Shown: piece after piece, positions 7,562-56,849 of the stretch
How the letters are laid out: the number at the start of each line of letters is the position of its first letter
How positions within the stretch are numbered: position 1 is the first letter of the stretch
IMG/VR virus record: IMGVR_UViG_3300047172_000052
Span: 13,854 to 77,853 of that record
Strand: one strand, 5' to 3'
Origin: a virus
Length of the DNA stretch: 64,000 bases
Made by a program: the position numbers and the translations under genes
The notes under the pieces: generated by a model
The model's database searches: none
What the model saw: the letters and a program-made list of their open reading frames with translations, nothing else
Told to the model about the DNA's origin: nothing

Positions 7562-9275
7562 AGCAGTGATGAACACAGTCAAGGAGATCGCCCCAGTGTC
7601 CCTCGCTACCCTGACCCGCGCCAAAGCCGAACACCTCTGCAACTGCTACGGCGTCCGGCTCGTAGACTTCGAGGACGAGTTCCAGTTCGCACTGTCCTAC
7701 GCGGCGAAGGGGCACAACCCGGTGGAACTGTTCGACGGCTATGTCGCCGAGACGGTGCGGGTGAACCGGGCCGATGAGCAGCAGGCGATCCTGGAGGAGG
7801 TGTGGTGATGCAATTCATCGTAACCCAGGCTATTATTCCTGGCAAGTTCACTTGGCAGGTCTGGTTCGGCTCTGACCTGGAGGGTGAATCCGACGAGCCT
7901 CTGGCATCCATGGAAGACGCGGCGGCACAAGCCATCAGGTGCATCAAAACACATTGGAGGTTCGCATGAACGTGCCGCAAGCTGCCAACACCAACGTCCC
8001 AGCCGCCACGCAGGGCCAGGGCTACTACCCCGAGCTTGGCGAGCGCCACGACGGCACGGCCCTGTTCGAGCGCCACGTGGGCTACGGCGGCTATTGCCTG
8101 AAGTGGTCCGCCGATCGCCACCAGGAGGCGCTAGACACGTTCAAGGCTCTTCGCATCCGCCCGCGCTACATGGAGCCGTTCCGCTCCGACAAGACCGGCA
8201 TCACGAAATGGTCGGCGGGTGTAACCTGGGAAGCCGGTCGGAAGCTCGACAAGCTGTCCGTGACTGAACTGCTGCTGGACTGAAAGGGAAACTCAAATGC
8301 GCCGCACCGCGATCCCATACCGCGACGCCGTCAAGTGGATTCTCGACAACGACGACGTCACCTTCCTGGACGACGAATACGGGAGCCCTTCCGTTAGCGC
8401 ATGCCTCGTCGCTGATATCTACCAGCGCCCTGTCGAGGAGGTGGTTGCGGAAATGCGGCAGCGGCGAGGGAGCACGCGATGACCCAGGCCCTGACACCCC
8501 TCGAAGCCAAGGCCATCCGCCGGGCGGTAGGCGATGCCGCTGCCGGCGAGATGTATGGATTCTCGCACGACCTGTGTGGCGCCCTGAAGTCCGGGGAGGC
8601 AAAGCTCGTGGCTGCACCGGCACAGGCCGTCTGGGTGCCGTTCTCGCGCCAGGAATTGGACATCCTTCTGGATGCCGTCTCGAACGGCGCCGAGGGCGTC
8701 TTGCAGCCCTCCAGTGGCGTCAGCGCCGACCGTAAGAGGGCATTCCGTTCTGCCGCCAACCGGCTGATCGATGCTGGCGGCTTCACCATGCCACGGTTCT
8801 AGGAGGCGACATGACCAACGAGCTAACCGCCAAACAGCAGGAACGAATCGACCACGCCTGGGATCAGGTCCAAATACGTGCCGCCCAGGCCCTCTCGGAC
8901 GCGTCCTGTCACACGCTGGAGGACGCCCTGGTGATCATCAAGGAACTGGAGAAGAATGGCTGGACGATCCTCCAGAGCCCACTGCTGACCATCCTGCGAA
9001 CAAACACGCCGCGCACGGAGATACGCGCCGATCGAGAGCCGGCGCCGACTGTCACCGTGAGGGTCAAATGACCACCCGCACCGCCTACGTCATCATGTGC
9101 AACGACTACCCCGAGGCCGTCTGCATGGGCACCGAGGAGGAAGCGGATACCCTCGCAAAGCGCCTGAAGGACGAGGATGTCGCCAAGTTCCGCAAGCACC
9201 TCGGTCCCAAGGCCACGCCGCCCTTCAAGCACTGGGCAGCACGCGTCGTGCCGGTGTGGCCTCCGGCGTAAATTA

Positions 9276-13709: not shown

Positions 13710-13906
13710 GGGTGTGGCTTGTTCAGCGGATTCTTGCAGATGCGACACACCTCATAGTATTCGCCGTAGCCAAACCCCAGGCACTCCCATCCGTCGCCCA
13801 GGCAGGCACCGCAGACCTTTGGCTGTTCGACCTGGGCAGGCGACGGCTTCGGCTCGAAGTCCTTCATGCGTTTGGCGATGTCTGCGAAGTCGAACACGAT
13901 GCTCAT
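13706..13906 (-). CDS. Small zinc-ribbon protein
   Basis: CGAC...CRIC; ATGA-coupled. Confidence 0.65.
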   Translation of the reverse strand: MSIVFDFADIAKRMKDFEPKPSPAQVEQPKVCGACLGDGWECLGFGYGEYYEVCRICKNPLNKPHP

Positions 13907-22422: not shown

Positions 22423-22473
22423 AAAGTAGCAGGTCAGGCTGCTGTGGTCAATCCGAAATGTGCGTCAGGCATA
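22423..22473 (-). promoter_or_regulatory. Repeated promoter unit (minus strand)
   Basis: TATGCCTGACGCACA (22473-22459); TTGACC (22451-22446); 17 bp; TACTTT. Confidence 0.7.
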
Positions 22474-22976
22474 TATGTTCTGATCGCCTTGCGCCATAGG
22501 TAGACAGGCACGACGGCGTCGAAGCCCTCGGCGAGCGTTGGCGCCTCGTAGCTCTGCTGCATCTCCTGGTCGACGTAGTAGGGGATAACCTTGCCGGGCC
22601 GATTCCCGAGGCGAAAGATTCGAACACCCTCGTCCACCTTCACCGTGACGGCGATCTTGCGGTAACACGATGGCAATCCTGCCAGCTTACGGGCGCGAGA
22701 CTTCACGGTTAGGTTCGTCTGGTCGTGGATCATGTCGACCCGCGTCATGATAGCTTGCTGCCGCCACAGCGCCATGATCTTAGTCGCTTGATCAATGCCA
22801 CTCTTGAACATCTCGTTGTATGTCGAACCGTGCTCCGCAGCCAGGGAGTCGATGACATAGTCCGTCGTCAACTGGACGATCGGGCGCGGCCACAGGTCGA
22901 CAATCGAGCGGCGCACGGTGGTCTTGCCGGAGGCTGGCAGGCCAACCAGCATGATGAATATAGGGTCAGGCTGCAT
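22434..22976 (-). CDS. P-loop polynucleotide kinase (AAA_33-like)
   Basis: MLVGLPASGKTT...DQTNL...R...EGFD; next to the RNA ligase. Confidence 0.85.
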   Translation of the reverse strand: MQPDPIFIMLVGLPASGKTTVRRSIVDLWPRPIVQLTTDYVIDSLAAEHGSTYNEMFKSGIDQATKIMALWRQQAIMTRVDMIHDQTNLTVKSRARKLAGLPSCYRKIAVTVKVDEGVRIFRLGNRPGKVIPYYVDQEMQQSYEAPTLAEGFDAVVPVYLWRKAIRTYMPDAHFGLTTAA

Positions 22977-24180
22977 CTTGCATCTCCCAGGCGTTCCAGC
23001 GTGCGGTGCGGATGATCTGCCGTGCCATCGTCTCGAACGACTTGTTGCTCGCCGATCGTAGGATGACGTATTGCTTTGCCCACTCGACGGCTTTCTCGAA
23101 TACGCGCGTCTGATCCGGCATATCCCAGACGGCGAAGCAGGCGGAGCGTAGGACGCCCTTCTTGCATCTTTCGGCAAATCGCGCCTTGGTTGTCCGATTC
23201 TGCCACTCGTCCAGCAGGATCGTCGACACCTCGTGTGCGAAGTCTTGGATGTCTCGGTTCACCTGCACCGTGAACAGTGCCAGTCGCTCCTTCGTCTCTC
23301 TGTCGATGATCGGCAGCAGGTCGTCCGTCTTTTCCTCCAGGATCATTCGGACGACGTCGCGCTCACTTCGCAGAGTCTCGAACTTGGCGTGGCTCAGCGC
23401 CCGATACCAGTCGGTCTTGACCTTCGCCATGTGACCATCCTCGAAGCGGATGACGAAGCCCTCGGTGTCTTCCATCGCCCGAACTGAGTCGACTAGATCG
23501 GCGGTGGTCCAACCGATACCAAACCAAGATCGGGTCCCGACTATTGGGATGTCAGTGTCACCGACCTGAGCCCGCATCTCCGCCCGAGAAAAGTATCGAC
23601 CGGACACGTTGTGTCTGATGGCAAGCAGAACCAGACGGTCCTCGGGATGGTCGATCACAATGCGCTGCTTCCTGGAGCACCATTCGAAGATCGGCGTGAC
23701 ACCTGCGCGGATGCACTTCCGTGCCAGCCATTGGTATTCCGGATGCTGCGATACGAAGCATTCCGCCTGCATTGCTACGTCCGTGATGCCCATCTTCGTC
23801 ATCCAGCGAATCCCGAATCCACGGTCGATCGGAACCGGACGCACCATGCTGCCATCGAGCTTGTGCAAGAGCGCATGCGGGCGTGTCAGGTCCAGGGTCT
23901 GCGTGTCCTGCCTCTCCCCCACGTTGAAGAACTTGTGGAACGGACGACTGATGACGTAGCCGGAGAAGGAATCGAAGATGATCCCCCTGCACTCCCGCAG
24001 GATCGCGAGCGTCTCGTCATCGTCGATGACCGGAGGAAACGTATCCTGACCGACCAGGACGTAGTTGAAGATCGTGATGTCGCCTGGGCGATCGACACGG
24101 ATGAACTCGGGGCGCCCTTTGATCGCCTGGATTACCTGCCAGATGTGGTCGATGGTGGGGAATTCGTAGTGCAGGGTCAT
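22966..24180 (-). CDS. T4 Rnl1-like RNA ligase
   Basis: RECRGIIF, KFFNVGE, KLDGSM (motif I), EGFV, KVKTDWY. Confidence 0.92.
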   Translation of the reverse strand: MTLHYEFPTIDHIWQVIQAIKGRPEFIRVDRPGDITIFNYVLVGQDTFPPVIDDDETLAILRECRGIIFDSFSGYVISRPFHKFFNVGERQDTQTLDLTRPHALLHKLDGSMVRPVPIDRGFGIRWMTKMGITDVAMQAECFVSQHPEYQWLARKCIRAGVTPIFEWCSRKQRIVIDHPEDRLVLLAIRHNVSGRYFSRAEMRAQVGDTDIPIVGTRSWFGIGWTTADLVDSVRAMEDTEGFVIRFEDGHMAKVKTDWYRALSHAKFETLRSERDVVRMILEEKTDDLLPIIDRETKERLALFTVQVNRDIQDFAHEVSTILLDEWQNRTTKARFAERCKKGVLRSACFAVWDMPDQTRVFEKAVEWAKQYVILRSASNKSFETMARQIIRTARWNAWEMQDAA

Positions 24181-24614
24181 CAGAAGTTCCCCGGCGCGAC
24201 CTGCGCGCAGACGATGCCGTTCTCGCGCCACATATCGACCACGCGTTGCCGGTCGTCGAACACCAGCGTAGGATCGAAACCGTCCTCGCGAATCTTCACC
24301 AGCAACTCCGCCTTGATGATGGCGTCGTCACGGAAGTCGTTGTCGGGGCGCATGTAGACGCGACGCGGCCATACGTTGTGCTTGCGCAGCCAGTCGTTCG
24401 TCATGTCCCTGGTCCACTCCGGACGACCGGTGCAGCACACGATGCGGCAACCGGCGGTGAAGAGGCGCTGGAACGTCTCGCAGATGGGTGCGATCGGCGG
24501 ATCGTGCGGGATGCCGAGGTAGAACGCCTTGTGGTTCTTCGGACGCGTGGTGATCCAGTGACGTCGATGCTCGCAGTCAGCCAGGGTGCCATCGATGTCG
24601 AAACAGACGTCCAT
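24180..24614 (-). CDS. HAD phosphatase (T4 Pnkp/PseT 3-prime-phosphatase-like)
   Basis: FDIDGTL, TGR, MRP.ND.R.D..IK, FDDR..VV.MWR..G. Confidence 0.9.
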   Translation of the reverse strand: MDVCFDIDGTLADCEHRRHWITTRPKNHKAFYLGIPHDPPIAPICETFQRLFTAGCRIVCCTGRPEWTRDMTNDWLRKHNVWPRRVYMRPDNDFRDDAIIKAELLVKIREDGFDPTLVFDDRQRVVDMWRENGIVCAQVAPGNF

Positions 24615-24855: not shown

Positions 24856-25470
24856 CTACAGTGACCCAACCAGCCGCCCGATGTTGGGCGAAGGCTCGAT
24901 GTAGCGTTCCGTCGTCGACAAGCTCGCGTGGCCTGCCAGCATCTGCACGTCCTTGATCGAGCAGTCGTGCTGCCCGGCGCGCCGCGCCGCCCGCGTGATG
25001 AACGTCCGGCGCCCCGAATGCGAGGAGCAGCCTTCGAAACCTATGCTGGCGTAGAGTTTCGTGAACCAGAGACGAACGGCACTCGACGTCATCCGCGTCC
25101 CAGCGCGCGGGCCGACATGACCACGCCCGAAGCCACGTCCGATGCCATAGACCACCACTTCGTCCGCAGGGCGCACTGCACGAAGCTGCAGAAGCGCCGT
25201 GTAGAGGTGAGGGTTCATCGGCACGTGGCGCTCCTTGCCGTTCTTGGCGATGTTGCCAGGAACGAACATGGTGTCGGCACGGACCTTCCCCTCGGCGTCG
25301 GTGACGTCCTTCCACTCCAGGCCGGCGATCTCGACCGCACGCAGGCCTGCCTTGTAGGAGAGAAGCACCATGACCTGATCCCGCTCCGGATGATCGCTTT
25401 CCTTGCCGATCTTGTAGAGCAACGCCGCGAACTGGGTATCGTCCAGAACCTTAGCGTGTTTGTTGGCCAC
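24856..25470 (-). CDS. Tyrosine recombinase, catalytic domain only (FimB/FimE-sized)
   Basis: GLRAVE (R), AKNG (K), HSGR (HxxR), LAGH, TERY (Y) all intact; 204 aa with no N-terminal binding domain. Confidence 0.92.
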   Translation of the reverse strand: MANKHAKVLDDTQFAALLYKIGKESDHPERDQVMVLLSYKAGLRAVEIAGLEWKDVTDAEGKVRADTMFVPGNIAKNGKERHVPMNPHLYTALLQLRAVRPADEVVVYGIGRGFGRGHVGPRAGTRMTSSAVRLWFTKLYASIGFEGCSSHSGRRTFITRAARRAGQHDCSIKDVQMLAGHASLSTTERYIEPSPNIGRLVGSL

Positions 25471-27684: not shown

Positions 27685-27701
27685 GTGTGCAGTTCTCCTT
27701 C

Positions 27702-28067
27702 TTACCAGTTCACAATCTTTTTCTGGGACATGACTTCGAAATATCGCCGTCCCGCATCGGCCTTTGCCTTCAGTGGTTCCAGTTCGGCGGCAGGAGCACC
27801 AAGGCGCTTCGCCCTCAAGTAGGCTTCTACGTCCTTGGACAACTGCTTGCTTGTCGCGCCATTTCGATAGATGCCTCCTCGGATAACCCGGAGAGCCTGC
27901 CCGTGCTGCCACGCGTCATAGACGCCGGCACCATACTGAGCTTCGAGTGCTGCCTGCGCTGTCTCCTGGGTGAGTGGGCTGCAGGGGTAGATATAGAGGA
28001 CGGCTTCATCCGCCAGTTCACCCGCCTTGATCAGCCAGTTCGAGGTGTTGGCAGACTCTGTGGCCAT
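27702..28067 (-). CDS. Hypothetical protein
   Basis: First gene after the divergent promoter; SD present. Confidence 0.65.
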   Translation of the reverse strand: MATESANTSNWLIKAGELADEAVLYIYPCSPLTQETAQAALEAQYGAGVYDAWQHGQALRVIRGGIYRNGATSKQLSKDVEAYLRAKRLGAPAAELEPLKAKADAGRRYFEVMSQKKIVNW

Positions 28068-28094
28068 TCCTCAGTTCTCCTTCTCCGTGGCATT

Positions 28095-28208
28095 CATTCG
28101 ATGCCCCCCTTATACCAGCACCGTGTCAGCCAGTCCAGAAATAAATGCGCCTGTGGCGTCGTTTTCCTGTTGACGGTCCCGTCAGTATATCTTACAAGGG
28201 GTCATCGA
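28095..28208. promoter_or_regulatory. Divergent promoters sharing one palindrome
   Basis: TGCGCCTGTGGCGTC 28146-28160; TTGACG 28170 toward rIIA; on the minus strand TGGACT-17-TATAAG; CATCGA downstream on both sides. Confidence 0.65.
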
Positions 28209-28232
28209 AACGGAGCGAGGAGGCAAGACGGT

Positions 28233-30446
28233 ATGCGTGACGTGGTCGGCTTGATGGATCGGGACGTCGAGGTCAGCGGGCTGGAGGAAGTCGGGACATT
28301 CACCATCCAGGCCAATGCCAAGGCCTTCAAAATCCTGATCGATGGGCTCTACTCCGACAAGATTCGCGCCATCATCCGTGAACTGTGGGCGAACGCCTTC
28401 GACAGTCATTGCATGGCTGGCATCGCCCATCGCCCGTTCTTCTCCCGTCTGCCGACCCGGTTCGACACCACATTCTCGGTGCGGGACTTCGGTGTGAGCC
28501 TGACGCACGAGCAGGTGATGAAGCTCTACACCACCGTCTTCGCCTCCACGAAGGAGGACACCAATGCGCAGGTCGGCAAGTTCGGCCTGGGATCGAAGAC
28601 CCCGTTCGCCTACACCGACAGCTTCAGCGTCGTCGCGATCCTCGATGGTGAGAAGCGCACCTACAACGCCTACATCGACAGCAAGGGCATCCCCCGCATC
28701 GCGCTGTTCTCCCGCGAGGAGACCGACGAGGAGCAGGGCCTGGAGATTTCCTTCTCGGTGAAGGATAGCGACATCAAAGCGTTCTCGCGTGCCGCGCAGC
28801 GCGTCGCCCTCGGCTTCGACGTGATCCCCGAGACGAACGGCGTGATCACGAAGACCGAGTTGACGACCGTGTTCGAGGGCAATGGATGGCGCGTCGTGAC
28901 GCCCGACTGGAACACCGGTCTGAATGGCGCCCTGGTGCGCCAGGGCTGCGTGCTCTATCCGGTCGATCGTCAGGCGCTGACCGCCGTGAAGCATTCGGCG
29001 GCTGTCGACAGCCTCGCCGGAGAGACTGTCATCCTCGATATGCCGATCGGCAGCGTCGATATCACGCCGTCGCGTGAGAGCCTGTCCTACGATCCGATCA
29101 CCGCAGGCAATCTGATCGCCAAGTTCGAGGAGATCGCGCAGGAGTTTCTCCGGCAGGCGGAAGACAAGATCAGCAATTCCAAGACGTGGCTGGAGGCCAT
29201 CCGCAACCGCGTCGACGTGCTGGGTGCGATCAGCAGCGAGAAGATGAAGGAATTCATCTCCCAGCGGTTGGCGTGGCGCGGTCGGACGATTCCCGTCCAT
29301 ATCAACATCACTTCGAAGCAGCTTCAGCTTCTGCGCCTCAAGGGTGTCAACCTCCACGACATCAAGAGCGAGCGTAAGCGCGGCGGCGGCTATAAATACT
29401 ATGCGATGGCATGCAGCAACTTCAGCAGCGTCCCGCACAAGCTGCCGACTTTCGTCTATGCGGAGGGGGATTCGCCGCGTCATCTCGGTCCTCGTCTGGC
29501 TGCGGCGAGGCATGCGCATGGGGACGTCTACTACATCCCGAACTTCAAGCTCGGTTCGTGGGGGCACAAGGCAATCCTGGCCATGCTGGGGCGCCCCGAC
29601 GACGAAGACGTCAAGTTCGTCGACATCGAGACGTTCCCCTACGTCAAGCCCGACTACAAGAAGACATTGGCGTCCTTGACGCAGTGGGATTCGAGCCGAG
29701 ACGCTTTCGCCCCCCCGCGTGTCGAGATCGAGCCAGACCAGGAGAACGTCTTCTACGTTCACACCTTCAAGGGCGATCCGCGCCACGGCGAGCGCTATGT
29801 GAGCCTGCGCATCTTGGCGCAGGTTTGGGACGGTCTGGCGGGCGCCAAGCTGCTGCCGTCTGATGCCGTTCTGGTCGGCATCCCTGCGTCCCGTAAGGAC
29901 ATCGCGAACAACATCCCCGAGTCCTGGGCGAGCTTCTTCGACTGGGTGTCGGAAGTGATCGCCGAGAAGTTCGATGCCGAAGTTGCCTCGAAGGCGATGG
30001 CAGCGAACACGATCAAGGGCGAGAGAGACCAGGGCAACCGGAAGATCATCACCGTGCTGGACAGCCTGCGCCCACACGCATCACTGCTGACGCATGGGGA
30101 TTCGTTTGCCCGAACTGTGCTCGAAGAAACGGCGCTGTATGGGGAGACTGTTCCGGACGGTCCATTCCAGCTTTCCCTCGTGGAACTGATCCGCGCGCTG
30201 TTCATGGCGACCGAATCCGACGCGATCCTTTCCAAGATCGACGAGAAGCCGCACACCGCTGGTTTCTATAAGCTCCTGAAGGCCTTCAACAAGGCCTACC
30301 CGATCGTCAGGGTCATCGCTATGGCCAGCGGTTACTACAACACGCCGAACCTCGCCCATGACGAAGTCCTTGAAGTCTTTGACTACCTAAACTTCAAGGA
30401 CGCCCAGGCGGCGCAAGCCCGGCAGGACGACGTCGCCTGGGGCTGA
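28233..30446 (+). CDS. rIIA: RIIA-like protein (GHKL/Hsp90-like ATPase N-terminus)
   Basis: LYSDKIRAIIREL.ANAFDSH, VRDFG, STK...GKFGLGSK.PFAY; followed by rIIB. Confidence 0.9.
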   Translation: MRDVVGLMDRDVEVSGLEEVGTFTIQANAKAFKILIDGLYSDKIRAIIRELWANAFDSHCMAGIAHRPFFSRLPTRFDTTFSVRDFGVSLTHEQVMKLYTTVFASTKEDTNAQVGKFGLGSKTPFAYTDSFSVVAILDGEKRTYNAYIDSKGIPRIALFSREETDEEQGLEISFSVKDSDIKAFSRAAQRVALGFDVIPETNGVITKTELTTVFEGNGWRVVTPDWNTGLNGALVRQGCVLYPVDRQALTAVKHSAAVDSLAGETVILDMPIGSVDITPSRESLSYDPITAGNLIAKFEEIAQEFLRQAEDKISNSKTWLEAIRNRVDVLGAISSEKMKEFISQRLAWRGRTIPVHINITSKQLQLLRLKGVNLHDIKSERKRGGGYKYYAMACSNFSSVPHKLPTFVYAEGDSPRHLGPRLAAARHAHGDVYYIPNFKLGSWGHKAILAMLGRPDDEDVKFVDIETFPYVKPDYKKTLASLTQWDSSRDAFAPPRVEIEPDQENVFYVHTFKGDPRHGERYVSLRILAQVWDGLAGAKLLPSDAVLVGIPASRKDIANNIPESWASFFDWVSEVIAEKFDAEVASKAMAANTIKGERDQGNRKIITVLDSLRPHASLLTHGDSFARTVLEETALYGETVPDGPFQLSLVELIRALFMATESDAILSKIDEKPHTAGFYKLLKAFNKAYPIVRVIAMASGYYNTPNLAHDEVLEVFDYLNFKDAQAAQARQDDVAWG

Positions 30447-30453
30447 AACTTTC

Positions 30454-30505
30454 TGTGCCTGGGGCTGTTTTTGCTGTTGACGTGCGTGACGCGCGGTGAC
30501 ATAGT
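30454..30505 (+). promoter_or_regulatory. Repeated promoter unit upstream of rIIB
   Basis: TGTGCCTGGGGCTGT 30454-30468; TTGACG 30477; 17 bp; CATAGT 30500. Confidence 0.75.
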
Positions 30506-30551
30506 GCTCCCAACGAAATGTGCTTCCAGATGTGAAAAGGAGATGGTGCGA

Positions 30552-31830
30552 ATGGTGAAGGTTCCCTACACGATCACACCGACCGCGATTTCGGTCCTGG
30601 TCAACAACCGGATGCGGGTGCTGAACAGCACCAACGTGAACTTCGGCGCGCTGCGGGATCACCTGCGGCTGGCGGACCATGACGTCGATCTGATCGCCGA
30701 CCTCGTCGACATCTCCACCTTCATCGCCCGTGCGACGTTCGGTCGCGTCCAGATCGGCGATGCCGGCGTCAAGTGGGACGGCACCAATGTCGGCAACGTC
30801 ATCGCCGATCGCCTGCTGGAACTGCTGCGCGGCGGCCATGACCTGGAGCCGCTGGCGCGGTTCCTTGAACGCCTGATGGAGAACCCGCTGCAGACGGCGA
30901 AGGACGAACTCTACCTGTGGCTGGAGAGCGGCAACGCCCCGATCACGCCGGACGGCTACTTCCTGGCGTTCAAGGCGGTTCGTCACGACTACAAGGACAA
31001 GTATTCCGGCACGTTCGACAATTCGGTCGGGCAGATCGTCTCCATGCCTCGCGAACAGGTCGACCCCGATCGGCAAAATGAGTGCTCGCGTGGGCTGCAC
31101 TTCTGCTCGCACGACTATCTGCAGAACTTCGCCAGCCAGGGCAATCCGATCATGATCGTCAAGATCGATCCGGCGGACGTCGTTGCGATCCTGAAGGACT
31201 ACAACAACCAGAAGGGACGCACGTGGCGCTACGAGGTGGTCGGCGAGGTCCCGCAGGACGAGACGGCGAGCTTTTTTCCAAGGGCGACCTGTGGTGCAGG
31301 TGTATTCGGCGCCGGTCGATGAAGAAGGTGTCGAGGCCGATGACGACGGCGACGACATCGTGGGGAGCGACGAGACGGAGGACGTCGATGGGAGTGGTCT
31401 GAAGATCGAGGACGTCAACGTCGGCGACAGCTTACTCTGCCTCCGCGATGAGGAAGACATGACTGAGGGCAACACCTACGTCGTGATCGACCTGAGCGAA
31501 GAATTCTCTGAGGTTATGGTTACCGATGATGCCGAGAACGAGTCCTGGTGCGACGTCTCCCTCTTCAAGAAGGTCGATCCTGTCGTCGGACATTTCGCCC
31601 CCGCCGAGAGCGTCGTCGAGCCGGCGCCGGAACCCGAGGATGATGTAGTCACCGAGGCGGCGCCCGGCACGCCGGAACTGATGTTCACCGCGAAGGGCGG
31701 CAGGTCCTACCTCGCCAGCGAGGTGCGAAACCTGCTCAGCGAGCATGGGCAGCGCGGCATGTCCCGCCTGACCGGCGTGCCCCGAACGACGATCCAGGAT
31801 TGGGTGAAGGCGATCAACGCCAACGCCTGA
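30552..31830 (+). CDS. rIIB: RIIB-like protein, split by a +1 frameshift near 31272-31277, with acidic linker and C-terminal HTH
   Basis: ITPDG.FLAFK.V..DY.D...MPR..VD.D...CSRGLH.C...P.DVV.I..DY...KGR...YEVVGE; removing one T from CTTTTTTCC joins it to ORF 31291-31830. Confidence 0.85.
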
Positions 31831-31840
31831 TCCAGCCAGG

Positions 31841-31951
31841 GAGAGGGAGCATCGACTGGTAGATGCGAACGATGTCGAGAGCGACGTGGGATCGATCGTC
31901 ACCCATTAGCACCGCTTCGTTGGGGAGGTTCGAATCCTCTTCCTCTCACCA
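31841..31951 (+). ncRNA. tRNA-like RNA 1 (111 nt, enlarged anticodon domain)
   Basis: GAGAGGG/TCCTCTC-A-CCA acceptor stem, CATC/GATG D-stem, GGAGG-TTCGAAT-CCTCT T-arm. Confidence 0.75.
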
Positions 31952-31965
31952 TCTTGCTAGTTTCT

Positions 31966-32063
31966 TCCGGTGCCACTTGCAATGGCCTTGATGACCGAAA
32001 GTCCGGCGCTGGACAAGTAGGACTGAGCCTGAACAGGGGGTGGAACTCCCCCGACCGGAGCCA
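31966..32063 (+). ncRNA. tRNA-like RNA 2 (98 nt, K-turn-like and loop-E-like motifs)
   Basis: TCCGGT/ACCGGA-G-CCA, GGGGG-TGGAACT-CCCCC T-arm, TGATGA...CTGA and GAA/AGTA motifs. Confidence 0.65.
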
Positions 32064-32084: not shown

Positions 32085-32468
32085 TTGCCCATCATCTTCC
32101 AGCACCGCGTCTACCGCTCCGACCTGCAGAACAATCCGGACGTCCTCTACCTGTTCGGCGACAACGATGAGCGCACGGGCTACGGAGGACAGGCTGGCGA
32201 GATGCGGGACGAGGAGAACGCGGTCGGCGTGCGGACGAAGTTCCGACCTGGAATGGAACGCCGAGACTTCTTCAACGATAGCTTCTACAGGGACGCGTGT
32301 GAGATGATCTACACCGACCTGGAACGGGCGCGTGAGCACCTGGAGAAGGGTGGCGTCCTGGTCATTCCTTCGGATGGACTCGGCACAGGTCTGTCCCGGC
32401 TTCCGGAACTGGCGCCGCGCATCAATGCGTATCTGGTCGAGGAACTGGAGAAGCTGAAGGAGTTGTAG
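32085..32468 (+). CDS. Conserved phage protein, macro-domain-like
   Basis: YLFGDN..R.G.GGQA..MR...NA.G.RTK...P.DGLGTGL motif. Confidence 0.6.
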   Translation: MPIIFQHRVYRSDLQNNPDVLYLFGDNDERTGYGGQAGEMRDEENAVGVRTKFRPGMERRDFFNDSFYRDACEMIYTDLERAREHLEKGGVLVIPSDGLGTGLSRLPELAPRINAYLVEELEKLKEL

Positions 32469-49415: not shown

Positions 49416-49530
49416 CACTGGCGTCAGGCTAAGATAGCCTCGTCGCTTCACTGTTCGTTTCCATCACATCTGGCGCGTTTCCAGAGCGGCGAAACCGCTG
49501 TGGGATTTTTGCGCCTTGAGGAGTTCTGCC

Positions 49531-52461
49531 ATGTCGAATTTTCGTCCGATCGCCGCCGGTATGGGTCAAGCAGTGGCGGAGAGGACGATCTTGCGGCGGA
49601 AAGCGAATGGTGAGTTGGAAGACTGGGGAGACGTGGCAGATCGGGTTTCACTGGGCAACGCGATGTTGATGCCAGCCACCGATTGTTCCAAGTTCCTGGT
49701 CGAGTGGGATTTGCTTCGTCATCATATCGCCAACGGCAACACCCTCATGTCCGGTCGGCACCTCCAACACGGCGACGTTTTCCAGCCGGGTCGCAACCTC
49801 GAAGTCTTCTCGAACTGCTCTACCAGCGCCACCAGTTTCCTGCTGTTCTACCTACTCCTGAACGGCTCCGGCGTCGGTCGCTGCTACGATGACGACATGA
49901 TGCTGGTCGACTGGAATAACGCCCCTTCGCTTCGCTGCGTGCTGGACACGGCGCACCCCGACTTCGACTACGCCGCGCATGAGAGCAAGCGCGATGCGCT
50001 GCACAAGTATGGCAGCGGCAAGGACGTCATGTGGCACGAGGTTGACGACAGCCGTGAAGGCTGGACCAAGGCGGTCGAGATTTGGGAGAACGCCGCCTTC
50101 GAGCGCATCCACGCCCACAAGATGCTGATCCTGGACTTCAGCAAGGTGCGTGCGCGGGGGTCGCCGATCGGTGGCATGCAGAACCGCCCGGCGTCCGGCC
50201 CCGTGCCACTCATGTGCGCCCTGGACAAGGTGGCGACCCTCAAGGGCTCCGGCATCGCCCGCTGGCTTCAGGCCATGTATGTCGACCACTACCTCGCGGA
50301 GTGCGTGCTGGTCGGCGGCGCGCGGCGCGCGGCGCGCATGAGCACTAAGCACTGGAGCGACCCGACGATCTTCGACTTCATCACGGTCAAGCGCCCGATC
50401 GAGTATGTTGGCAAGACCGTCGAGGAGATCACGGCGCTCCGCAAGGCTTCCGCCCCCATGTCTTTCCTTTGGTCGAGCAACAACTCGATCATGGTGGACG
50501 AAGAGTTCTGGGACCTAGTGAAGTCCACATTCAAGGTCCAGGACGCGCGGACGCAGCACGCCAAGAAGGTCTTCAACCTCGTCTGCGAAGCCGCCTACGC
50601 GGATGGAACCGGCGAGCCGGGCTTCATCAACTGCGACAAGCTGATCCAGAAGGACGACGGCTGGACAGACCTGAACCGTGGCGACTACATCGGCGGCACG
50701 AAATACTTCGTCGAGGACGACACGCAAATCCTTCTGAGCAAGCTGGCGAAGCGAGCGAAGAAGAAGAAGCACCACATGATCGTCAATCCGTGCGTGACCG
50801 GGGACACCGTCATCGCAACCGTTGATGGTCCAAAGACATTTGCTGAATTGGCTGAAGAAGGCGATGACGTCCTAGTCTACGCTTGGCATCCGAAAACGAA
50901 GCTACCCGTCGTTCGGATGATGCGCTGCCCTCACAAGACTAGGTTCAATGTTCCGGTCATCGAAGTCGAATTCGACAGCGGTCTGAAAGTCAGAATGACC
51001 CCTGACCATTCCCTCTTCACCTTTCGTGGTAAGAAGATCAAAGCCAAAGACCTAAAGGTCGGTAAGTCCGTTCGGGCTTTCTCGATGTCCAAGCACCGCG
51101 ACGGGCATCTGAGAGCGCATGCTTGGGATGATGTAACAAACTCCGCCAAACACCAGTGGGTCCACCGCATGATCTGGGAGAACGAGAATGGCCCTATCCC
51201 TGAAGGCATGTGCGTTCATCACATCGATGAAGACAAAGAGAACAACGTGACCAGCAACATGGAGTTGGTCACCGATGTGGAACACAACAAAATTCACTAT
51301 GCGGCTCGCTTTGCCAACGGGTTCGACGGCACCTGTGCCAACCACAAGGTTGTCGCGATCAGGGATGCTGGCACAGCAGACGTTTACAACGGCTGCGTTG
51401 ATGACGCCCATACCTACATCATCGTCGATCCGGAACCGGTTGCTGGCATCCTGTCAGGCATCGTATCTGCAAACTGTGGTGAGATCGCTCTATCCCTGCT
51501 CGGCGGCTTCTGCGTCATCGCAGACGTCGTCCCCTTCCACGCCGAATCGCTCAGCGAGGCCGAGGAGTGCTTCCGTGTCGTCACCAGGGCGCTGATGCGC
51601 GTCAACCTGATGCGATCCGTCTACGACAAGGAGGTCGCCCGCACGAACCGCATCGGCGTCGGCATGACCGGCGTCCACGAATTCGCCTGGAAGTTCTTCG
51701 GTCTCGGCTTCCACGACCTGATCCACGAGGAGAAGTCGCAAGCGTTCTGGAATACCTTGGCGCGGTTCAGCCGCGCCGTGCGTGACGAGGCACACAGCTA
51801 CGCCAAGGAACTGGGCGTCAAGGTTCCGCACACGATGACGACGATCAAGCCGGCAGGCACTACCAGCAAGCTCTTCCTGCTGACCGAAGGCTGGCATCTT
51901 CCGTCCATGCGTGAGTTTGTCCGATGGGTGCAGTTTCGTTCGGACGATCCGCTGGTCCAGACCTACAAGGATGCCGGCTACCCGACCAGGGAACTGGTGA
52001 CCTACGGCGGCACGACGATCGTCGGCTTCCCCACGGCGCCAACCATCACAACCCTCGGCATGGGCGACAAGCTGGTTACGGCATCGGAAGCGACGCCTGA
52101 GGAGCAGTTCACATGGCTTCGTCTGGGAGAGAAGTATTGGATCAATGGTGGACTGGAAGCCGATACCTACGGCAACCAGATAAGCTACACGCTGAAGTAT
52201 CTTCCGTCGAAAATCTCCCTGGAGGACTTCAAGATCATGATGGCGACGAACCAGTCAACTGTCCGGTGCTGTTCGGTTCTGCCGCAGGAAGAGAATTCCA
52301 GCTACGAATATCTTCCGGAGCAGATGGTCACCCAGTATCAATACATGGAGATCATGAAGCGGATCAAGGGGACAGGCGTCAGCGAAGACATCGGCAAGGA
52401 GCACGTCGACTGCGCAGGGGGAGCCTGTCCGGTCGATTTCCAGGAAGGGGCGAAGGCATGA
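49531..52461 (+). CDS. nrdJ: Class II (B12-dependent) ribonucleotide reductase containing an intein
   Basis: SGR.L, NCS, G.GVG, DSREGW, V.GG.RR.A, GEPG, NP/CGEI, RIGVG.TG, TTIKPAGT.S, C-terminal CAGGACP. Confidence 0.9.
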   Translation: MSNFRPIAAGMGQAVAERTILRRKANGELEDWGDVADRVSLGNAMLMPATDCSKFLVEWDLLRHHIANGNTLMSGRHLQHGDVFQPGRNLEVFSNCSTSATSFLLFYLLLNGSGVGRCYDDDMMLVDWNNAPSLRCVLDTAHPDFDYAAHESKRDALHKYGSGKDVMWHEVDDSREGWTKAVEIWENAAFERIHAHKMLILDFSKVRARGSPIGGMQNRPASGPVPLMCALDKVATLKGSGIARWLQAMYVDHYLAECVLVGGARRAARMSTKHWSDPTIFDFITVKRPIEYVGKTVEEITALRKASAPMSFLWSSNNSIMVDEEFWDLVKSTFKVQDARTQHAKKVFNLVCEAAYADGTGEPGFINCDKLIQKDDGWTDLNRGDYIGGTKYFVEDDTQILLSKLAKRAKKKKHHMIVNPCVTGDTVIATVDGPKTFAELAEEGDDVLVYAWHPKTKLPVVRMMRCPHKTRFNVPVIEVEFDSGLKVRMTPDHSLFTFRGKKIKAKDLKVGKSVRAFSMSKHRDGHLRAHAWDDVTNSAKHQWVHRMIWENENGPIPEGMCVHHIDEDKENNVTSNMELVTDVEHNKIHYAARFANGFDGTCANHKVVAIRDAGTADVYNGCVDDAHTYIIVDPEPVAGILSGIVSANCGEIALSLLGGFCVIADVVPFHAESLSEAEECFRVVTRALMRVNLMRSVYDKEVARTNRIGVGMTGVHEFAWKFFGLGFHDLIHEEKSQAFWNTLARFSRAVRDEAHSYAKELGVKVPHTMTTIKPAGTTSKLFLLTEGWHLPSMREFVRWVQFRSDDPLVQTYKDAGYPTRELVTYGGTTIVGFPTAPTITTLGMGDKLVTASEATPEEQFTWLRLGEKYWINGGLEADTYGNQISYTLKYLPSKISLEDFKIMMATNQSTVRCCSVLPQEENSSYEYLPEQMVTQYQYMEIMKRIKGTGVSEDIGKEHVDCAGGACPVDFQEGAKA
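50791..51474 (+). mobile_element. 228-aa intein with an HNH homing endonuclease domain
   Basis: Starts CVTGDT after NP; block B TPDH; ends GIVSAN before CGEI; central VHR.IW...GPIPEG..VHHIDE.K.NN...N. Confidence 0.92.
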
Positions 52462-53636: not shown

Positions 53637-54290
53637 ATGAACGTGGCTCAGGATTTGATGAAGACGGTTGGTGGGCGCATCCGTGCTCTCCGAGAGAAGG
53701 AGAGCCTGACGCAGCAGGACATCGCCAAGATCATGGGCATGTCTCGTGCTGGAGTCGCCCAGTGGGAACTGAACGTCACCAGTGTGTCGATCCAGAAGGC
53801 TGTCGAACTTGCCAAGCTGTTGCACACGACGCCGCAGTTCCTGGCGTTCGGGATCGATGGACAGCCGAAGATCGAATACATCGAGCGTCCCGATTCGGCT
53901 CGCATCCCCGAGGTGATGTTCGGCGCTAAGCCGACCGAGGTTACGGAGCTTCGTAACTGGACGGTCCCGCAGGACTACCTGAAGGGCGAACTGCACGTCT
54001 TGTCGACGGAGAACCTGATCATCTGGCGTGTGGAGGGCTCCGACATGGCGCCGTCCTACGAATATGGTGACAAGGTCATCGTCGACATGAATGCGAAGCG
54101 CCCTTCTCCGTCCGGCATCTTCCTGGTTTGGGATGGTGTCGGGCCTGCGCTGCGGAACGTCGCAGTCGTGCCGGTCGGTGGCAAGCCAACGGCGCGAGTC
54201 GCGACGCTGGACGGCAAGGAGACGTTCGAGGTCGCTATCGACAAGCTGACCATCATCGGGCGGGCTCGTGGGGTTCTGAAGAACCTGTGA
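53637..54290 (+). CDS. CI-like repressor (XRE HTH plus degenerate S24 domain)
   Basis: GGRIRALR...LTQQDIA..MGMSRAGVAQWE; VEGSDMAP...GDKVIVD...GIF...IIGR. Confidence 0.88.
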   Translation: MNVAQDLMKTVGGRIRALREKESLTQQDIAKIMGMSRAGVAQWELNVTSVSIQKAVELAKLLHTTPQFLAFGIDGQPKIEYIERPDSARIPEVMFGAKPTEVTELRNWTVPQDYLKGELHVLSTENLIIWRVEGSDMAPSYEYGDKVIVDMNAKRPSPSGIFLVWDGVGPALRNVAVVPVGGKPTARVATLDGKETFEVAIDKLTIIGRARGVLKNL

Positions 54291-55342: not shown

Positions 55343-55706
55343 TGTGGCGAAAAAATTGTGGCAATTTGTGGCAGAAAGGGTCCGCCACAATACGCTGGAA
55401 TACGCTCCAGGAAGCCAAACGTAAGTATTGGCGACCGTGTCAGCATACCCCCGTTTCCGGGTGATGTGCCTCTAAGTGATTGATTTAAGTGGGGAATTTG
55501 GTGGTGCCGACGCGGAGGGTCGAACTCCGGACCTACTGATTACGAAGCTAACGTGCGTCAGAATTACTTACAGTTCCTGTCTATCAACTTACGCTTTGGG
55601 CTTGCCGTTGTGGCTGATTTGTGGCTAAATCAGCCCGTTAGTCAGGTAAGCAGTAATGGCAAACATATCGACACGGACGTTCTTGGGCAAGGGCGGGCTG
55701 CCACAA
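55343..55706. other. attP: core is the 3-prime half of tRNA-Thr(CGT) (55502-55546, minus strand), with arm-type repeats and an IHF-like site
   Basis: Minus strand TTCGTAATCAGTAGGTCCGGAGTTCGACCCTCCGCGTCGGCACCA; (T)TGTGGC at 55343, 55356, 55366, 55608, 55619, inverted at 55384 and 55700; TAAGTGATTGATT at 55473. Confidence 0.88.
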
Positions 55707-56849
55707 ACCCGCTATCAGGTGTCCTATTTCGATGGAGACGGGCGGCGAAAGCGTAAAGACTTCAAGTTGGCTCGTCAGGCAAAATCATTCGTCGAAAGCC
55801 TGACTGAACACCGGAAGGCTGGAGTCTCGTTCAGTGAGGCATCCGGAACCGAGAGTTTCGAGGACGCTACGGAGGTGTTCATCAAGGCCTGCGAGATCGG
55901 GCGCGACGGCAAACCTCCGCTGGAGCCGGCGACCTTGAAGGACTACCGCTGGCGCCTTGAGCGCAGGGTCTTCCCGGTCATCGGGAAGCTGAAGGTTGGT
56001 AAACTCACCCAGGACGATTTCGAGCGGTTGCGCGACACCCTCCTCGCCTCCGGCATCACGCGGGGGTCCGCCAAGCAGACGCTGCTCTACGCCAAGTCGG
56101 TCATGAACCACGCCGTGGCGCGGCGCGTCATCGCCGCCAATCCTGGGACGATCGTTAAGGTGCATCGGGACGCCCGGCGTGAAGCCGTCGCCCGACAGGG
56201 CATCCCTATCCACACCAAGCAAGAGATGACCGCCATCTTAGGTGCTGCCCGCGCCCTGAGTCAGACGACAGGTCGGCTTGCTTGGATGCGGAATGTCTGG
56301 GAGCGGTTCGAGCCGATGCTCCATGTCCTCGTCTACTGTGGGTTGAGAATGTCGGAACTGCGGGGCCTCCCTCGGGACGCCCTGGCGCGTGACGGGAAGA
56401 CGATCCGCATCTACCAGCGAGCCGACATGGGCGGCGTCCTCGGTCCCCCGAAGTCGTCTCATGGGGCGCGCATCATCCACATCACGCCAGGGCTTGCGGA
56501 GAGGCTGCAGGCCTGGATGACGGCTAACCCTGGCGACGTGTCGGGGCTCATGTTCCCCACCGCCAGCGGGCTTCCTATCAGCCACCCCAACATAGCCCAG
56601 CGGATGTGGCGCAGGGTGCAGGAGAAGGCGGCGGTGACAATCCTCCACCCGCACGCCGCACGGCACTTCTACGCCTCCATGATGATCGACCAGGGGATGA
56701 ACCTGAAGGCGCTTCAGGAGAGCCTGGGGCACCATGACCCCATGTTCACGCTGAAGGCCTATGGTCACCTGTTTCGCGACCCGGCGGACATCGCCATGAG
56801 GCAGGAGATGGCGGCGCGGATGCAGTCAGTGCTGGAGGACGAGGACTAG
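55656..56849 (+). CDS. int: Phage integrase (tyrosine recombinase)
   Basis: Arm-binding N-terminus; GLRMSE, PKS, HAARH, LGH, AYGH catalytic set; next to attP. Confidence 0.96.
   Translation: MANISTRTFLGKGGLPQTRYQVSYFDGDGRRKRKDFKLARQAKSFVESLTEHRKAGVSFSEASGTESFEDATEVFIKACEIGRDGKPPLEPATLKDYRWRLERRVFPVIGKLKVGKLTQDDFERLRDTLLASGITRGSAKQTLLYAKSVMNHAVARRVIAANPGTIVKVHRDARREAVARQGIPIHTKQEMTAILGAARALSQTTGRLAWMRNVWERFEPMLHVLVYCGLRMSELRGLPRDALARDGKTIRIYQRADMGGVLGPPKSSHGARIIHITPGLAERLQAWMTANPGDVSGLMFPTASGLPISHPNIAQRMWRRVQEKAAVTILHPHAARHFYASMMIDQGMNLKALQESLGHHDPMFTLKAYGHLFRDPADIAMRQEMAARMQSVLEDED

Follow-up and report, generated by a model that had tools for sequence, protein, structure and literature searches.

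A tRNA-like RNA with a 44-nt domain in place of the anticodon loop in the rII operon of an uncultured phage

Introduction

What kind of RNA is encoded by a phage locus that provides the acceptor stem, D arm, T arm and CCA end of a tRNA, together with a 44-nt domain in the place of the anticodon loop? This question is raised by positions 31841–31951 (+ strand) of a 64,000-nt stretch of viral DNA (the window: positions 13,854 to 77,853 of IMG/VR virus record IMGVR_UViG_3300047172_000052), to which all coordinates refer unless another sequence is named. The record is 77.9 kb long and estimated to be 46% complete. Its genes resemble genes of Caulobacter and Brevundimonas phages, and its source is an uncultured phage of alphaproteobacteria.

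A first-pass annotation of this locus had proposed a tRNA mimic or decoy, or an intron-containing precursor that phage Rnl1/Pnk enzymes could rejoin, and had pointed to stable tRNA-like RNAs in T4 as a precedent. The precedent holds: rnaC (species 1, 139 nt) and rnaD (species 2, 119 nt) are annotated as small stable RNAs in T4, and rnaC has a consensus T arm. T4 species 1 and 2 are tRNA-like, non-decoding stable RNAs to which no function has been assigned to date. For the locus described here, we lean, on balance, toward a genuine gene under selection, whose product of ~111 nt resembles a tRNA but does not decode, as the best explanation as a whole.

Results

The tRNA-like RNA (element 1, 31841–31951) comprises 111 nt including an encoded ACCA at 31948–31951. 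We delineated it by its sequence, by a homologue on a metagenome contig (L122), and by a covariance model (R1) built from both copies. The 5′ strand of the acceptor stem, GAGAGGG (31841–31847), pairs with TCCTCTC (31941–31947) to form 7 bp, the last of which is G·U; the 3′ strand, the discriminator A and the encoded CCA together occupy 31941–31951. An AG linker connects the acceptor stem to the D arm (31850–31865), which consists of a CATC/GATG stem of 4 bp, or 5 bp if G9–C26 is counted, and an 8-nt loop containing GG (G18 G19). In the place of the anticodon stem, AACGA (31868–31872) pairs with TCGTT (31917–31921), and these 5 bp enclose exactly 44 nt (31873–31916). Only two bases (GG) separate the TCGTT strand from the T arm (31924–31940), leaving a variable region of 2 nt. 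The T arm has a 5-bp stem, GGAGG/CCTCT, with G·U as its first pair, and the loop TTCGAAT. All of these parts lie where the first-pass annotation had placed them, as do the two hairpins it had named within the 44 nt, and a 7-nt anticodon loop is indeed absent.

The core of this tRNA body is non-canonical in that A8 and G14 replace U8 and A14. The acceptor branch contains 12 bp and can also be read as an 8/4 branch, in which A8 pairs with the U that would otherwise belong to the first pair (G·U) of the T stem; both bases are invariant in L122. G·U pairs occur at 7:101, 84:100 and 33:46 (numbered from the first nucleotide of element 1), and at 29:80 in L122. Since these pairs would be A·C mismatches on the opposite strand, the + strand is the RNA strand.

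Standard tools do not recognize this gene. Whether or not introns were allowed, ARAGORN called neither a tRNA nor a tmRNA in the window, and no canonical tRNA was called anywhere in the 78 kb. Rfam returned no match to element 1 at gathering thresholds, and RF00005 (threshold 29 bits) did not match even at E ≤ 10. At this relaxed limit the sole match was tRNA-Sec (RF01852; E 0.1), in an alignment that spans acceptor, D loop and T arm only and leaves the middle unaligned. Its 20.8 bits fall short of the 47-bit cut-off that characterizes tRNA-Sec along with an 8/5 branch, a 6-bp D stem, a long variable arm and a UCA anticodon, and we rejected this identity. A confident canonical tRNA call, which the first-pass annotation had named as evidence against its reading, is hence not what ARAGORN and Rfam deliver. 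Genes such as element 1 thus escape Rfam and the usual tRNA finders. Of 119 matches with the shape of an oversized tRNA that a pattern scan returned from viral contigs, 56 went without a call under every ARAGORN setting.

The features of a canonical tRNA that are present are the 7-bp acceptor stem, the discriminator followed by CCA, the D arm with G18 G19 and a T loop of the form TTCRANY. The canonical anticodon feature, a 7-nt loop that contains U33 and a purine at 37 and is closed by a 5-bp stem, is absent. Because a 44-nt structured domain fills the place of the anticodon loop, nothing in element 1 is available to read a codon, and it is likely that this RNA does not decode. Anticodon-like readings of the internal hairpins 2 and 3 were rejected on account of their loops of 4 and 11 nt, and an alternative 5-bp stem around AUCGAUC is broken by a G-to-A change in L122. 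A class II tRNA with a long variable arm was also discarded, the D arm being of class I type, as was a small ribozyme (hammerhead, twister or other) in the insert, for which Rfam gave no match at E ≤ 10.

The homologue in L122 allowed us to ask how the RNA has changed. A metagenome scan with an alignment of the C-terminus of the upstream protein returned five loci (L122–L126), of which L122, a 3.2-kb contig, carries a copy of element 1 at 363–473 with 97 of 111 positions identical (87%). Gene order is the same, the upstream protein is 61% identical, and the RNA begins 10 nt past the stop codon, as in the window. Eight of the 14 differing positions make up four compensatory pairs: 2:106 and 3:105 in the acceptor stem, which change in L122 from A–U to G–C and from G–C to C–G, and 12:23 and 13:22 in the D stem. 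Pair 29:80 of the AACGA/TCGTT stem is A–U in the window and G·U in L122, and the change at position 46 turns U·G into U–A. The changed positions 27, 39, 71 and 72 are unpaired in the fold drawn by the first-pass annotation. All 33 pairs of this fold are intact in both copies and none is broken, compared with 41–59% paired in a control in which the partners were slid by 1–3 columns. A shuffle control gave 29/500; with two sequences its floor is ~1 in 16 and it has no power, and therefore the argument for selection rests on the pattern of changes. Element 1 is also more conserved (87%) than the flanking coding DNA (70–77% nucleotide identity). The D loop, the T arm with its TTCGAAT loop and the elbow bases G18 G19 are invariant in L122, and a rival register for the stem in the anticodon place, CGAA/TTCG, is broken there. 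The middle domain and the T arm offer almost no variation between the two copies by which folds could be compared.

These data bear on the view that element 1 is a tRNA pseudogene in decay or what is left of a phage attachment site of the tRNA type. Such an origin would agree with the failure of every tRNA finder to call the element, with its absence from some relatives and with integrase genes at 24856–25470 and 55656–56849. These integrases, however, lie 6 and 24 kb away, and for an attachment site a single strand of the 3′ part would be enough, with no call for a D arm or for covariation between the 5′ and 3′ strands. Four compensatory double changes between two lineages with no broken pair, and conservation above that of the flanking genes, argue for a selected RNA instead, and we give decay or a former attachment site hardly any weight. 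Element 1 is very probably a selected structured RNA. As judged from the two copies, the tRNA body is kept by selection, the acceptor and D stems through compensating mutations. The covariation check suggested by the first-pass annotation therefore came out in favor of its tRNA mimic: the body is maintained by compensatory change, and the insert is retained, with a middle domain that differs at 4 of 44 positions (~91% identical) between neighbors of 70–77% identity.

Model R1 scores 137–138 bits on the copies in the window and L122 only, and 20–35 bits on ordinary tRNAs. Apart from the two copies themselves, it scores highest, with 35.5 and 32.9 bits, on tRNA-Leu from phages Kikimora and CcrSC. 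We therefore conclude that the frame of element 1 is tRNA-derived; the gene probably originated from a phage tRNA gene. The T arm and 3′ acceptor strand share 85–88% identity with the tRNA-Leu genes of jumbo phages of Brevundimonas and Caulobacter, and by sequence similarity the tRNA-Leu genes of phages of these hosts appear to be the nearest among the tRNAs sampled. Element 1 shares the acceptor stem, the D arm with GG, the T arm and ACCA with the tRNA-Leu of Dolichocephalovirinae (Kikimora, CcrSC). Unlike these tRNAs of 84–88 nt, it has 111 nt, no anticodon loop, a 2-nt variable region and A8/G14. The known family consists of two sequences.

Could the 44 nt be an intron? In this scenario a nuclease cuts the insert out of a pre-tRNA, and joining of the two halves by the Pnkp/Rnl1 enzymes of the phage yields a functional tRNA. 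The phage does have Rnl1 and Pnkp domains, and non-ribozyme "enigmatic" tRNA introns have been reported in Lak megaphages (PMC6784885). In those cases excision leaves a canonical tRNA; none was recovered from element 1. ARAGORN with the intron option (-i) found nothing in either copy. We then deleted every segment of at least 10 nt between positions 26 and 83 from both copies and ran ARAGORN on each product. Sixteen deletions were called in both copies and six of these with the same anticodon, compared with a mean of 45 same-call deletions (range 0–408) in 25 controls in which columns 27–83 had been shuffled. Deletion of 32–65 leaves a 77-nt sequence that is called tRNA-Ala(AGC) in both homologues. 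This product lacks the G3·U70 identity pair of alanine tRNAs and, in the window copy, contains an A·C mismatch in a stem; its anticodon, moreover, is of a type that bacteria are not known to use. The commonest call in the window, GAG, turns into GAU in L122. Furthermore, conservation is higher in the insert than in the "exon" stems, and 44 nt are far too few for a group I ribozyme with a core of ~200 nt or more, in line with the lack of an Intron_gpI match at E ≤ 10. Since no deletion yields a plausible bacterial tRNA, the intron reading is not supported, and we consider this part of the first-pass annotation very improbable.

The 44-nt middle domain (31873–31916, + strand) may adopt either of two folds, with three hairpins or as one long irregular arm. 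The first-pass annotation had drawn a four-way junction with hairpin 2 at 31873–31886 (4-nt loop), hairpin 3 at 31887–31905 (11-nt loop) and a 3-bp mini-hairpin at 31908–31916. With the tRNA frame constrained, ViennaRNA prefers a long irregular arm (31868–31921) capped by the same 11-nt loop, which is predicted to be 7–9 kcal/mol more stable (−37.4 vs −30.3 kcal/mol for the window, −41.8 vs −32.8 for L122). Both interior folds retain 100% of their pairs in both copies; in the long arm, the changes at 39, 71 and 72 re-register a helix and are not neutral. The drawn pairs therefore stand, but as one of two solutions that the data allow. Element 1 has a z-score of −2.9 for its minimum free energy. 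The unconstrained optimum (−45.2 kcal/mol) melts the T arm against positions 48–65, so that the tRNA-like fold, at −30 to −37 kcal/mol, is not the thermodynamic optimum. The notion of a designed "anti-T-arm" pairing of 48–65 was dropped as mostly an effect of G/C-rich stems: the duplex energy of −19.1 kcal/mol was reached by 5 of 2000 full shuffles and 182 of 2000 loop-only shuffles.

Both folds end in the apical loop (31891–31901, + strand), whose 11 nt are invariant in L122 and contain the self-complementary 6-nt words ATCGAT and CGATCG. A loop–loop dimer of element 1 is therefore possible, with a computed self-duplex energy of −8.0 kcal/mol. This invariant loop would also suit a regulatory RNA in which the tRNA body provides processing and stability and the apical loop pairs with a target RNA, like C4 of phages P1 and P7, or with a second copy of itself. 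The architecture is that of the engineered "tRNA scaffold" for RNA expression in E. coli (PMC3753655). Against such a role, sites complementary to the apical loop are not above chance in the 78-kb record (three matches vs 2.4 expected), where the best antisense runs reach 12 nt (E 0.38), and the Rfam C4 family (RF01695) does not match. We regard a regulatory RNA of this type as improbable.

Element 1 lies within a run of + strand genes in the order rIIA (27687–30446), rIIB (30471–31322; both assigned by PHROGs), a 179-aa ORF in the C-terminal part of the rIIB region (31291–31830), the RNA, a DUF7831 gene and an SNF2 helicase gene. The stop codon of the 179-aa ORF precedes element 1 by 10 nt, and no promoter-like or terminator-like site was found between the two. 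The DUF7831 gene (32085–32468, + strand; PF25176, 140.8 bits) is 77% identical in L122.

The intervening sequence contains a second conserved RNA (element 2, 31966–32063, + strand), which begins 14 nt downstream of element 1, ends in GCCA and is followed after 21 nt by the DUF7831 start. A terminal helix of 7 bp is accompanied by a hairpin in which five G–C pairs close a 7-nt loop. Element 2 is 89% identical to L122:568–668, where 94 extra bases lie between the two RNAs, and conservation ends exactly at the CCA. Its minimum free energy is not unusual (z 0.03), Rfam gave no match at E ≤ 10, and a pattern made from its hairpin found five unrelated hairpins only. Besides element 1, there are at least two aberrant tRNA-like units in the same phage, namely, L127:8070–8140 and L127:8145–8214, ~19 kb upstream of element 1. 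These units score above the Rfam tRNA threshold (37.3 and 34 bits), receive no ARAGORN call and have shortened or odd anticodon arms.

This arrangement would also agree with mere operon punctuation: the fold would draw RNase P and 3′ enzymes to separate the rIIB message from that of DUF7831 and the helicase and to set or stabilize the ends, and the RNA thus excised would serve no further purpose. The position within a same-strand gene run, 10 nt past a stop codon and without a promoter- or terminator-like site, suits this explanation, as does the short distance between the end of element 2 and the next start codon. RNase P is known to process non-tRNA substrates such as phage M3 RNA, P1/P7 C4 RNA and polycistronic operon mRNAs (PMC11143913), and t-elements define mRNA ends in plant mitochondria (PMC1920247). 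A minihelix of acceptor stem and T arm would suffice for this purpose, however, and yet the 44-nt domain and its 11-nt loop are what is best conserved. Two different CCA-ended RNAs in tandem also exceed the need, and relatives with the same gene order do without element 1. Punctuation as the sole function seems unlikely to us.

Some 7 kb upstream of element 1 and on the opposite strand, the phage encodes an RNA-repair cassette (22434–24614, − strand) with matches to a PNKP phosphatase domain, an Rnl1-type RNA ligase and a P-loop kinase (PF25109, 107 bits; PF09511, 92 bits; PF13671, 46 bits; phrog_562). The Rnl1/Pnk enzymes invoked by the first-pass annotation are thus encoded in this genome.

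Searches for further homologues of element 1 took several routes. Exact and gapped DNA patterns for the T arm, hairpin 3 and the apical loop found nothing in viral contigs; in contigs of prokaryotic genomes they gave six chance matches with R1 scores of at most 12 bits. Single-protein searches with two proteins of the rIIB region found no relatives in viral contigs, and blastn against GenBank phages matched the T-arm end only, in tRNA-Leu and tRNA-Pro genes. Three loci with an upstream protein of 40% identity (L123–L125) have no tRNA-like RNA after its stop codon; the match in L126 covers 16 residues only and is not comparable. At the corresponding position, Mwe-JY26, the nearest GenBank phage, has no tRNA-like RNA but four hairpin repeats in tandem. 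From a search based on DUF7831, loci L134 and L135 lack the element, as do their whole records. The absence of element 1 from the more distant relatives (L123–L125, Mwe-JY26, L134) counts against our best explanation.

Discussion

How might such an RNA work? Element 1 would be co-transcribed with rIIA–rIIB, given that in both genomes only 10 nt, with no promoter-like site, separate it from the preceding stop codon. Host tRNA enzymes would then excise it, with RNase P cutting at G31841 and 3′ trimming ending at the encoded CCA, and the product would persist as a stable RNA. Its tRNA body may serve as the handle for tRNA-processing and tRNA-binding proteins that recognize the elbow and the acceptor end, while the conserved arm with its self-complementary apical loop would be the working end.

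Early in infection, element 1 may occupy or divert a host tRNA-binding protein, for example, a tRNA-directed defense nuclease. This decoy step is a guess and we hold it only tentatively, although it ranks first among the jobs we considered. If the target were an anticodon nuclease, one would expect its decoy to display a loop resembling an anticodon loop, which element 1 lacks. Going further, element 1, element 2 and the two aberrant units might together form a group of non-decoding tRNA mimics that act in concert with the Pnkp/Rnl1 cassette. They would blunt tRNA-directed immunity of the host, for instance by presenting their elbow and acceptor end to a tRNA-binding nuclease or sensor, which would be tied up with nothing to cut; the apical loop would let the mimic dimerize, and phages would generally use the tRNA body as a scaffold for expression and recognition. 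We put this broader idea forward as speculation that is rather unlikely to hold in full.

The closest published analogues of element 1 are T4 rnaC and rnaD. They too are phage-encoded, longer than a tRNA and non-decoding, and rnaC ends in a T arm (CCGGG, TTCGAAT) followed by a short terminal strand. Unlike element 1, both lie in a tRNA cluster, encode no CCA and show no recognizable D arm, whereas element 1 lies in the rII operon and has a full D arm, an elbow and an encoded ACCA. On the T4 region, model R1 matched tRNA-Leu only and neither rnaC nor rnaD, so that there is no sequence relation.

Other tRNA-like RNAs share parts of this design. YrlA tRNA mimics, which partner with Ro60, occur in bacteria and phages and are linked to RNA repair and quality control (PMC7824862). 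Like these RNAs, element 1 is non-decoding and has a tRNA-like elbow. In YrlA, however, the stem bound by Ro is made up of the RNA termini, and the acceptor end is closed, whereas the termini of element 1 form the acceptor stem with a free CCA. Membership in the YrlA/Y RNA family (RF02553) was rejected on this ground and for want of an Rfam match and of a TROVE/Ro gene in the 78-kb record of this incomplete genome. With the tRNA-like domain of tmRNA, element 1 has in common the acceptor stem, the T arm, CCA and the lack of an anticodon. A tmRNA has no D stem and contains pseudoknots and a tag reading frame, for which the 111 nt of element 1, with its full D arm, leave no room. ARAGORN in tmRNA mode (-m) made no call even at relaxed score, Rfam gave no tmRNA match, and we rejected this identity.

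C4 RNA of P1/P7 is an antisense RNA whose tRNA-like end is a substrate of RNase P (PMC11143913). C4 and the "tRNA scaffolds" resemble element 1 in combining a tRNA-like end with a function in internal loops or in an insert at the anticodon stem (PMC11143913; PMC3753655). Unlike C4, element 1 has no target complementarity in the phage, and with no Rfam match to C4 (RF01695) this assignment was rejected as well; unlike element 1, the scaffolds are products of engineering. In bacteria and their phages, allo-tRNAs occur whose acceptor branches are of the 8/4 or 9/3 type (Mukai et al. 2017, PMC5389517). An 8/4 reading is possible for element 1 too, but allo-tRNAs have real anticodon loops and decode; without a functional anticodon loop, element 1 was not assigned to the 8/4 type.

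Set against these systems, element 1 is a clean case: a complete tRNA body, a conserved module exactly in the place of the anticodon loop, and repair enzymes and aberrant tRNA-like units in the same genome. Should RNAs of this kind turn out to act on tRNA-binding host factors as decoys or scaffolds, they would constitute a new class of RNA-based counter-defense, and likewise a natural version of the "tRNA scaffold" of biotechnology.

The product of the neighboring DUF7831 gene gave no match in a Foldseek search with its fold, and VIA-align returned weak macro-domain-like rows with Z 5.3–5.7, which is below a trustworthy level. Closer homologues of this protein (P0005–P0009), with 60–67% identity, sit on contigs of 44–109 kb.

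A second conserved RNA beside the first

A second conserved non-coding RNA is predicted at positions 31966-32063 of the window (+ strand), starting 14 nt 3' of the first tRNA-like RNA. This element combines a terminal helix of 7 bp with a hairpin of five G-C pairs closed by the loop TGGAACT, and it terminates in GCCA at the 3' end. Its counterpart lies at 568-668 of L122, the 3.2-kb metagenome contig that is the only known relative to carry the first RNA. The two versions are 89% identical, and the conserved stretch ends exactly at the CCA. The folding energy of the element is ordinary (MFE z 0.03), and a search against Rfam returned no match. Between its two RNAs L122 holds 94 additional bases (474-567), bounded by a 10-bp inverted repeat (CTCTGCGACC / GGTCGCAGAG). 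A small element may have inserted here, or the segment may encode a third hairpin RNA.

Upstream of the two RNAs, the rIIB region of the window consists of two overlapping ORFs in different frames, both on the + strand (30471-31322, 283 aa; 31291-31830, 179 aa), and its counterpart in Microcystis phage Mwe-JY26 (PP438418) is a single 349-aa gene that is annotated as "transposase". Two separate genes may be present, or the split may come from a frameshift or from an error in the assembly. At the homologous spot downstream of rIIB, Mwe-JY26 contains four tandem repeats of one hairpin unit of about 32 nt (L001:3163-3340) in place of the tRNA-like RNAs of the window. Downstream of the RNAs follows a DUF7831 gene (32085-32468, +), the family of which is common among alphaproteobacterial phages and present in some bacterial genomes. 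The AlphaFold model of this protein is confident (pLDDT 94.8). Foldseek matched nothing to the model, and VIA-align returned weak rows only, mostly macro domains (TARG1 and DarG, Z 5.3-5.4; Poa1p, 4.8). Because these rows are too weak, we do not name the fold.

Unusual tRNA shapes elsewhere

The same virus record contains two adjoining tRNA-like units about 5.7 kb upstream of the window start (L127:8070-8140 and 8145-8214). They score 37.3 and 34 bits against the Rfam tRNA model, and ARAGORN called neither. One has an anticodon stem of 3 bp and a loop of 8 nt; the other has a 4-bp anticodon stem with the loop CTACCAA and a T loop of 8 nt. CCA is absent directly 3' of both units.

A scan of IMG/VR contigs for a D loop followed by 50-75 nt, a T loop and CCA yielded at least 119 matches. 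Among the 119 listed, 44 are normal tRNAs, 19 are called by ARAGORN solely with an intron allowed, and the remaining 56 received no call under any ARAGORN setting. These uncalled matches measure 95-122 nt, most combine CCA with an acceptor stem that pairs perfectly over 7 bp, and they include several recurrent families, such as a 108-nt family from sample 3300045988. In Brevundimonas phage Kikimora (L003:1257-1343) and Caulobacter phage CcrSC (L004:1277-1363), an 87-nt RNA is annotated as "tRNA-Lys", which exceeds a normal class I tRNA by about 11 nt.

Other genes in the window

An RNA-repair cassette on the - strand (22434-24614) is divided among three genes, which encode a PNKP-type HAD phosphatase at 24180-24614, an Rnl1-type RNA ligase at 22966-24231 and a P-loop kinase at 22434-23177. 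Within a ribonucleotide reductase ORF of 981 aa (49516-52461, +), residues ~508-606 make up an HNH endonuclease segment, which points to an intein or to the insertion of a homing endonuclease. The phage may be temperate. A repressor-like gene (53637-54290, +) and two integrase-family genes (55656-56849, +; 24856-25470, -) co-occur with rIIA/rIIB and the phage's own DNA polymerase.
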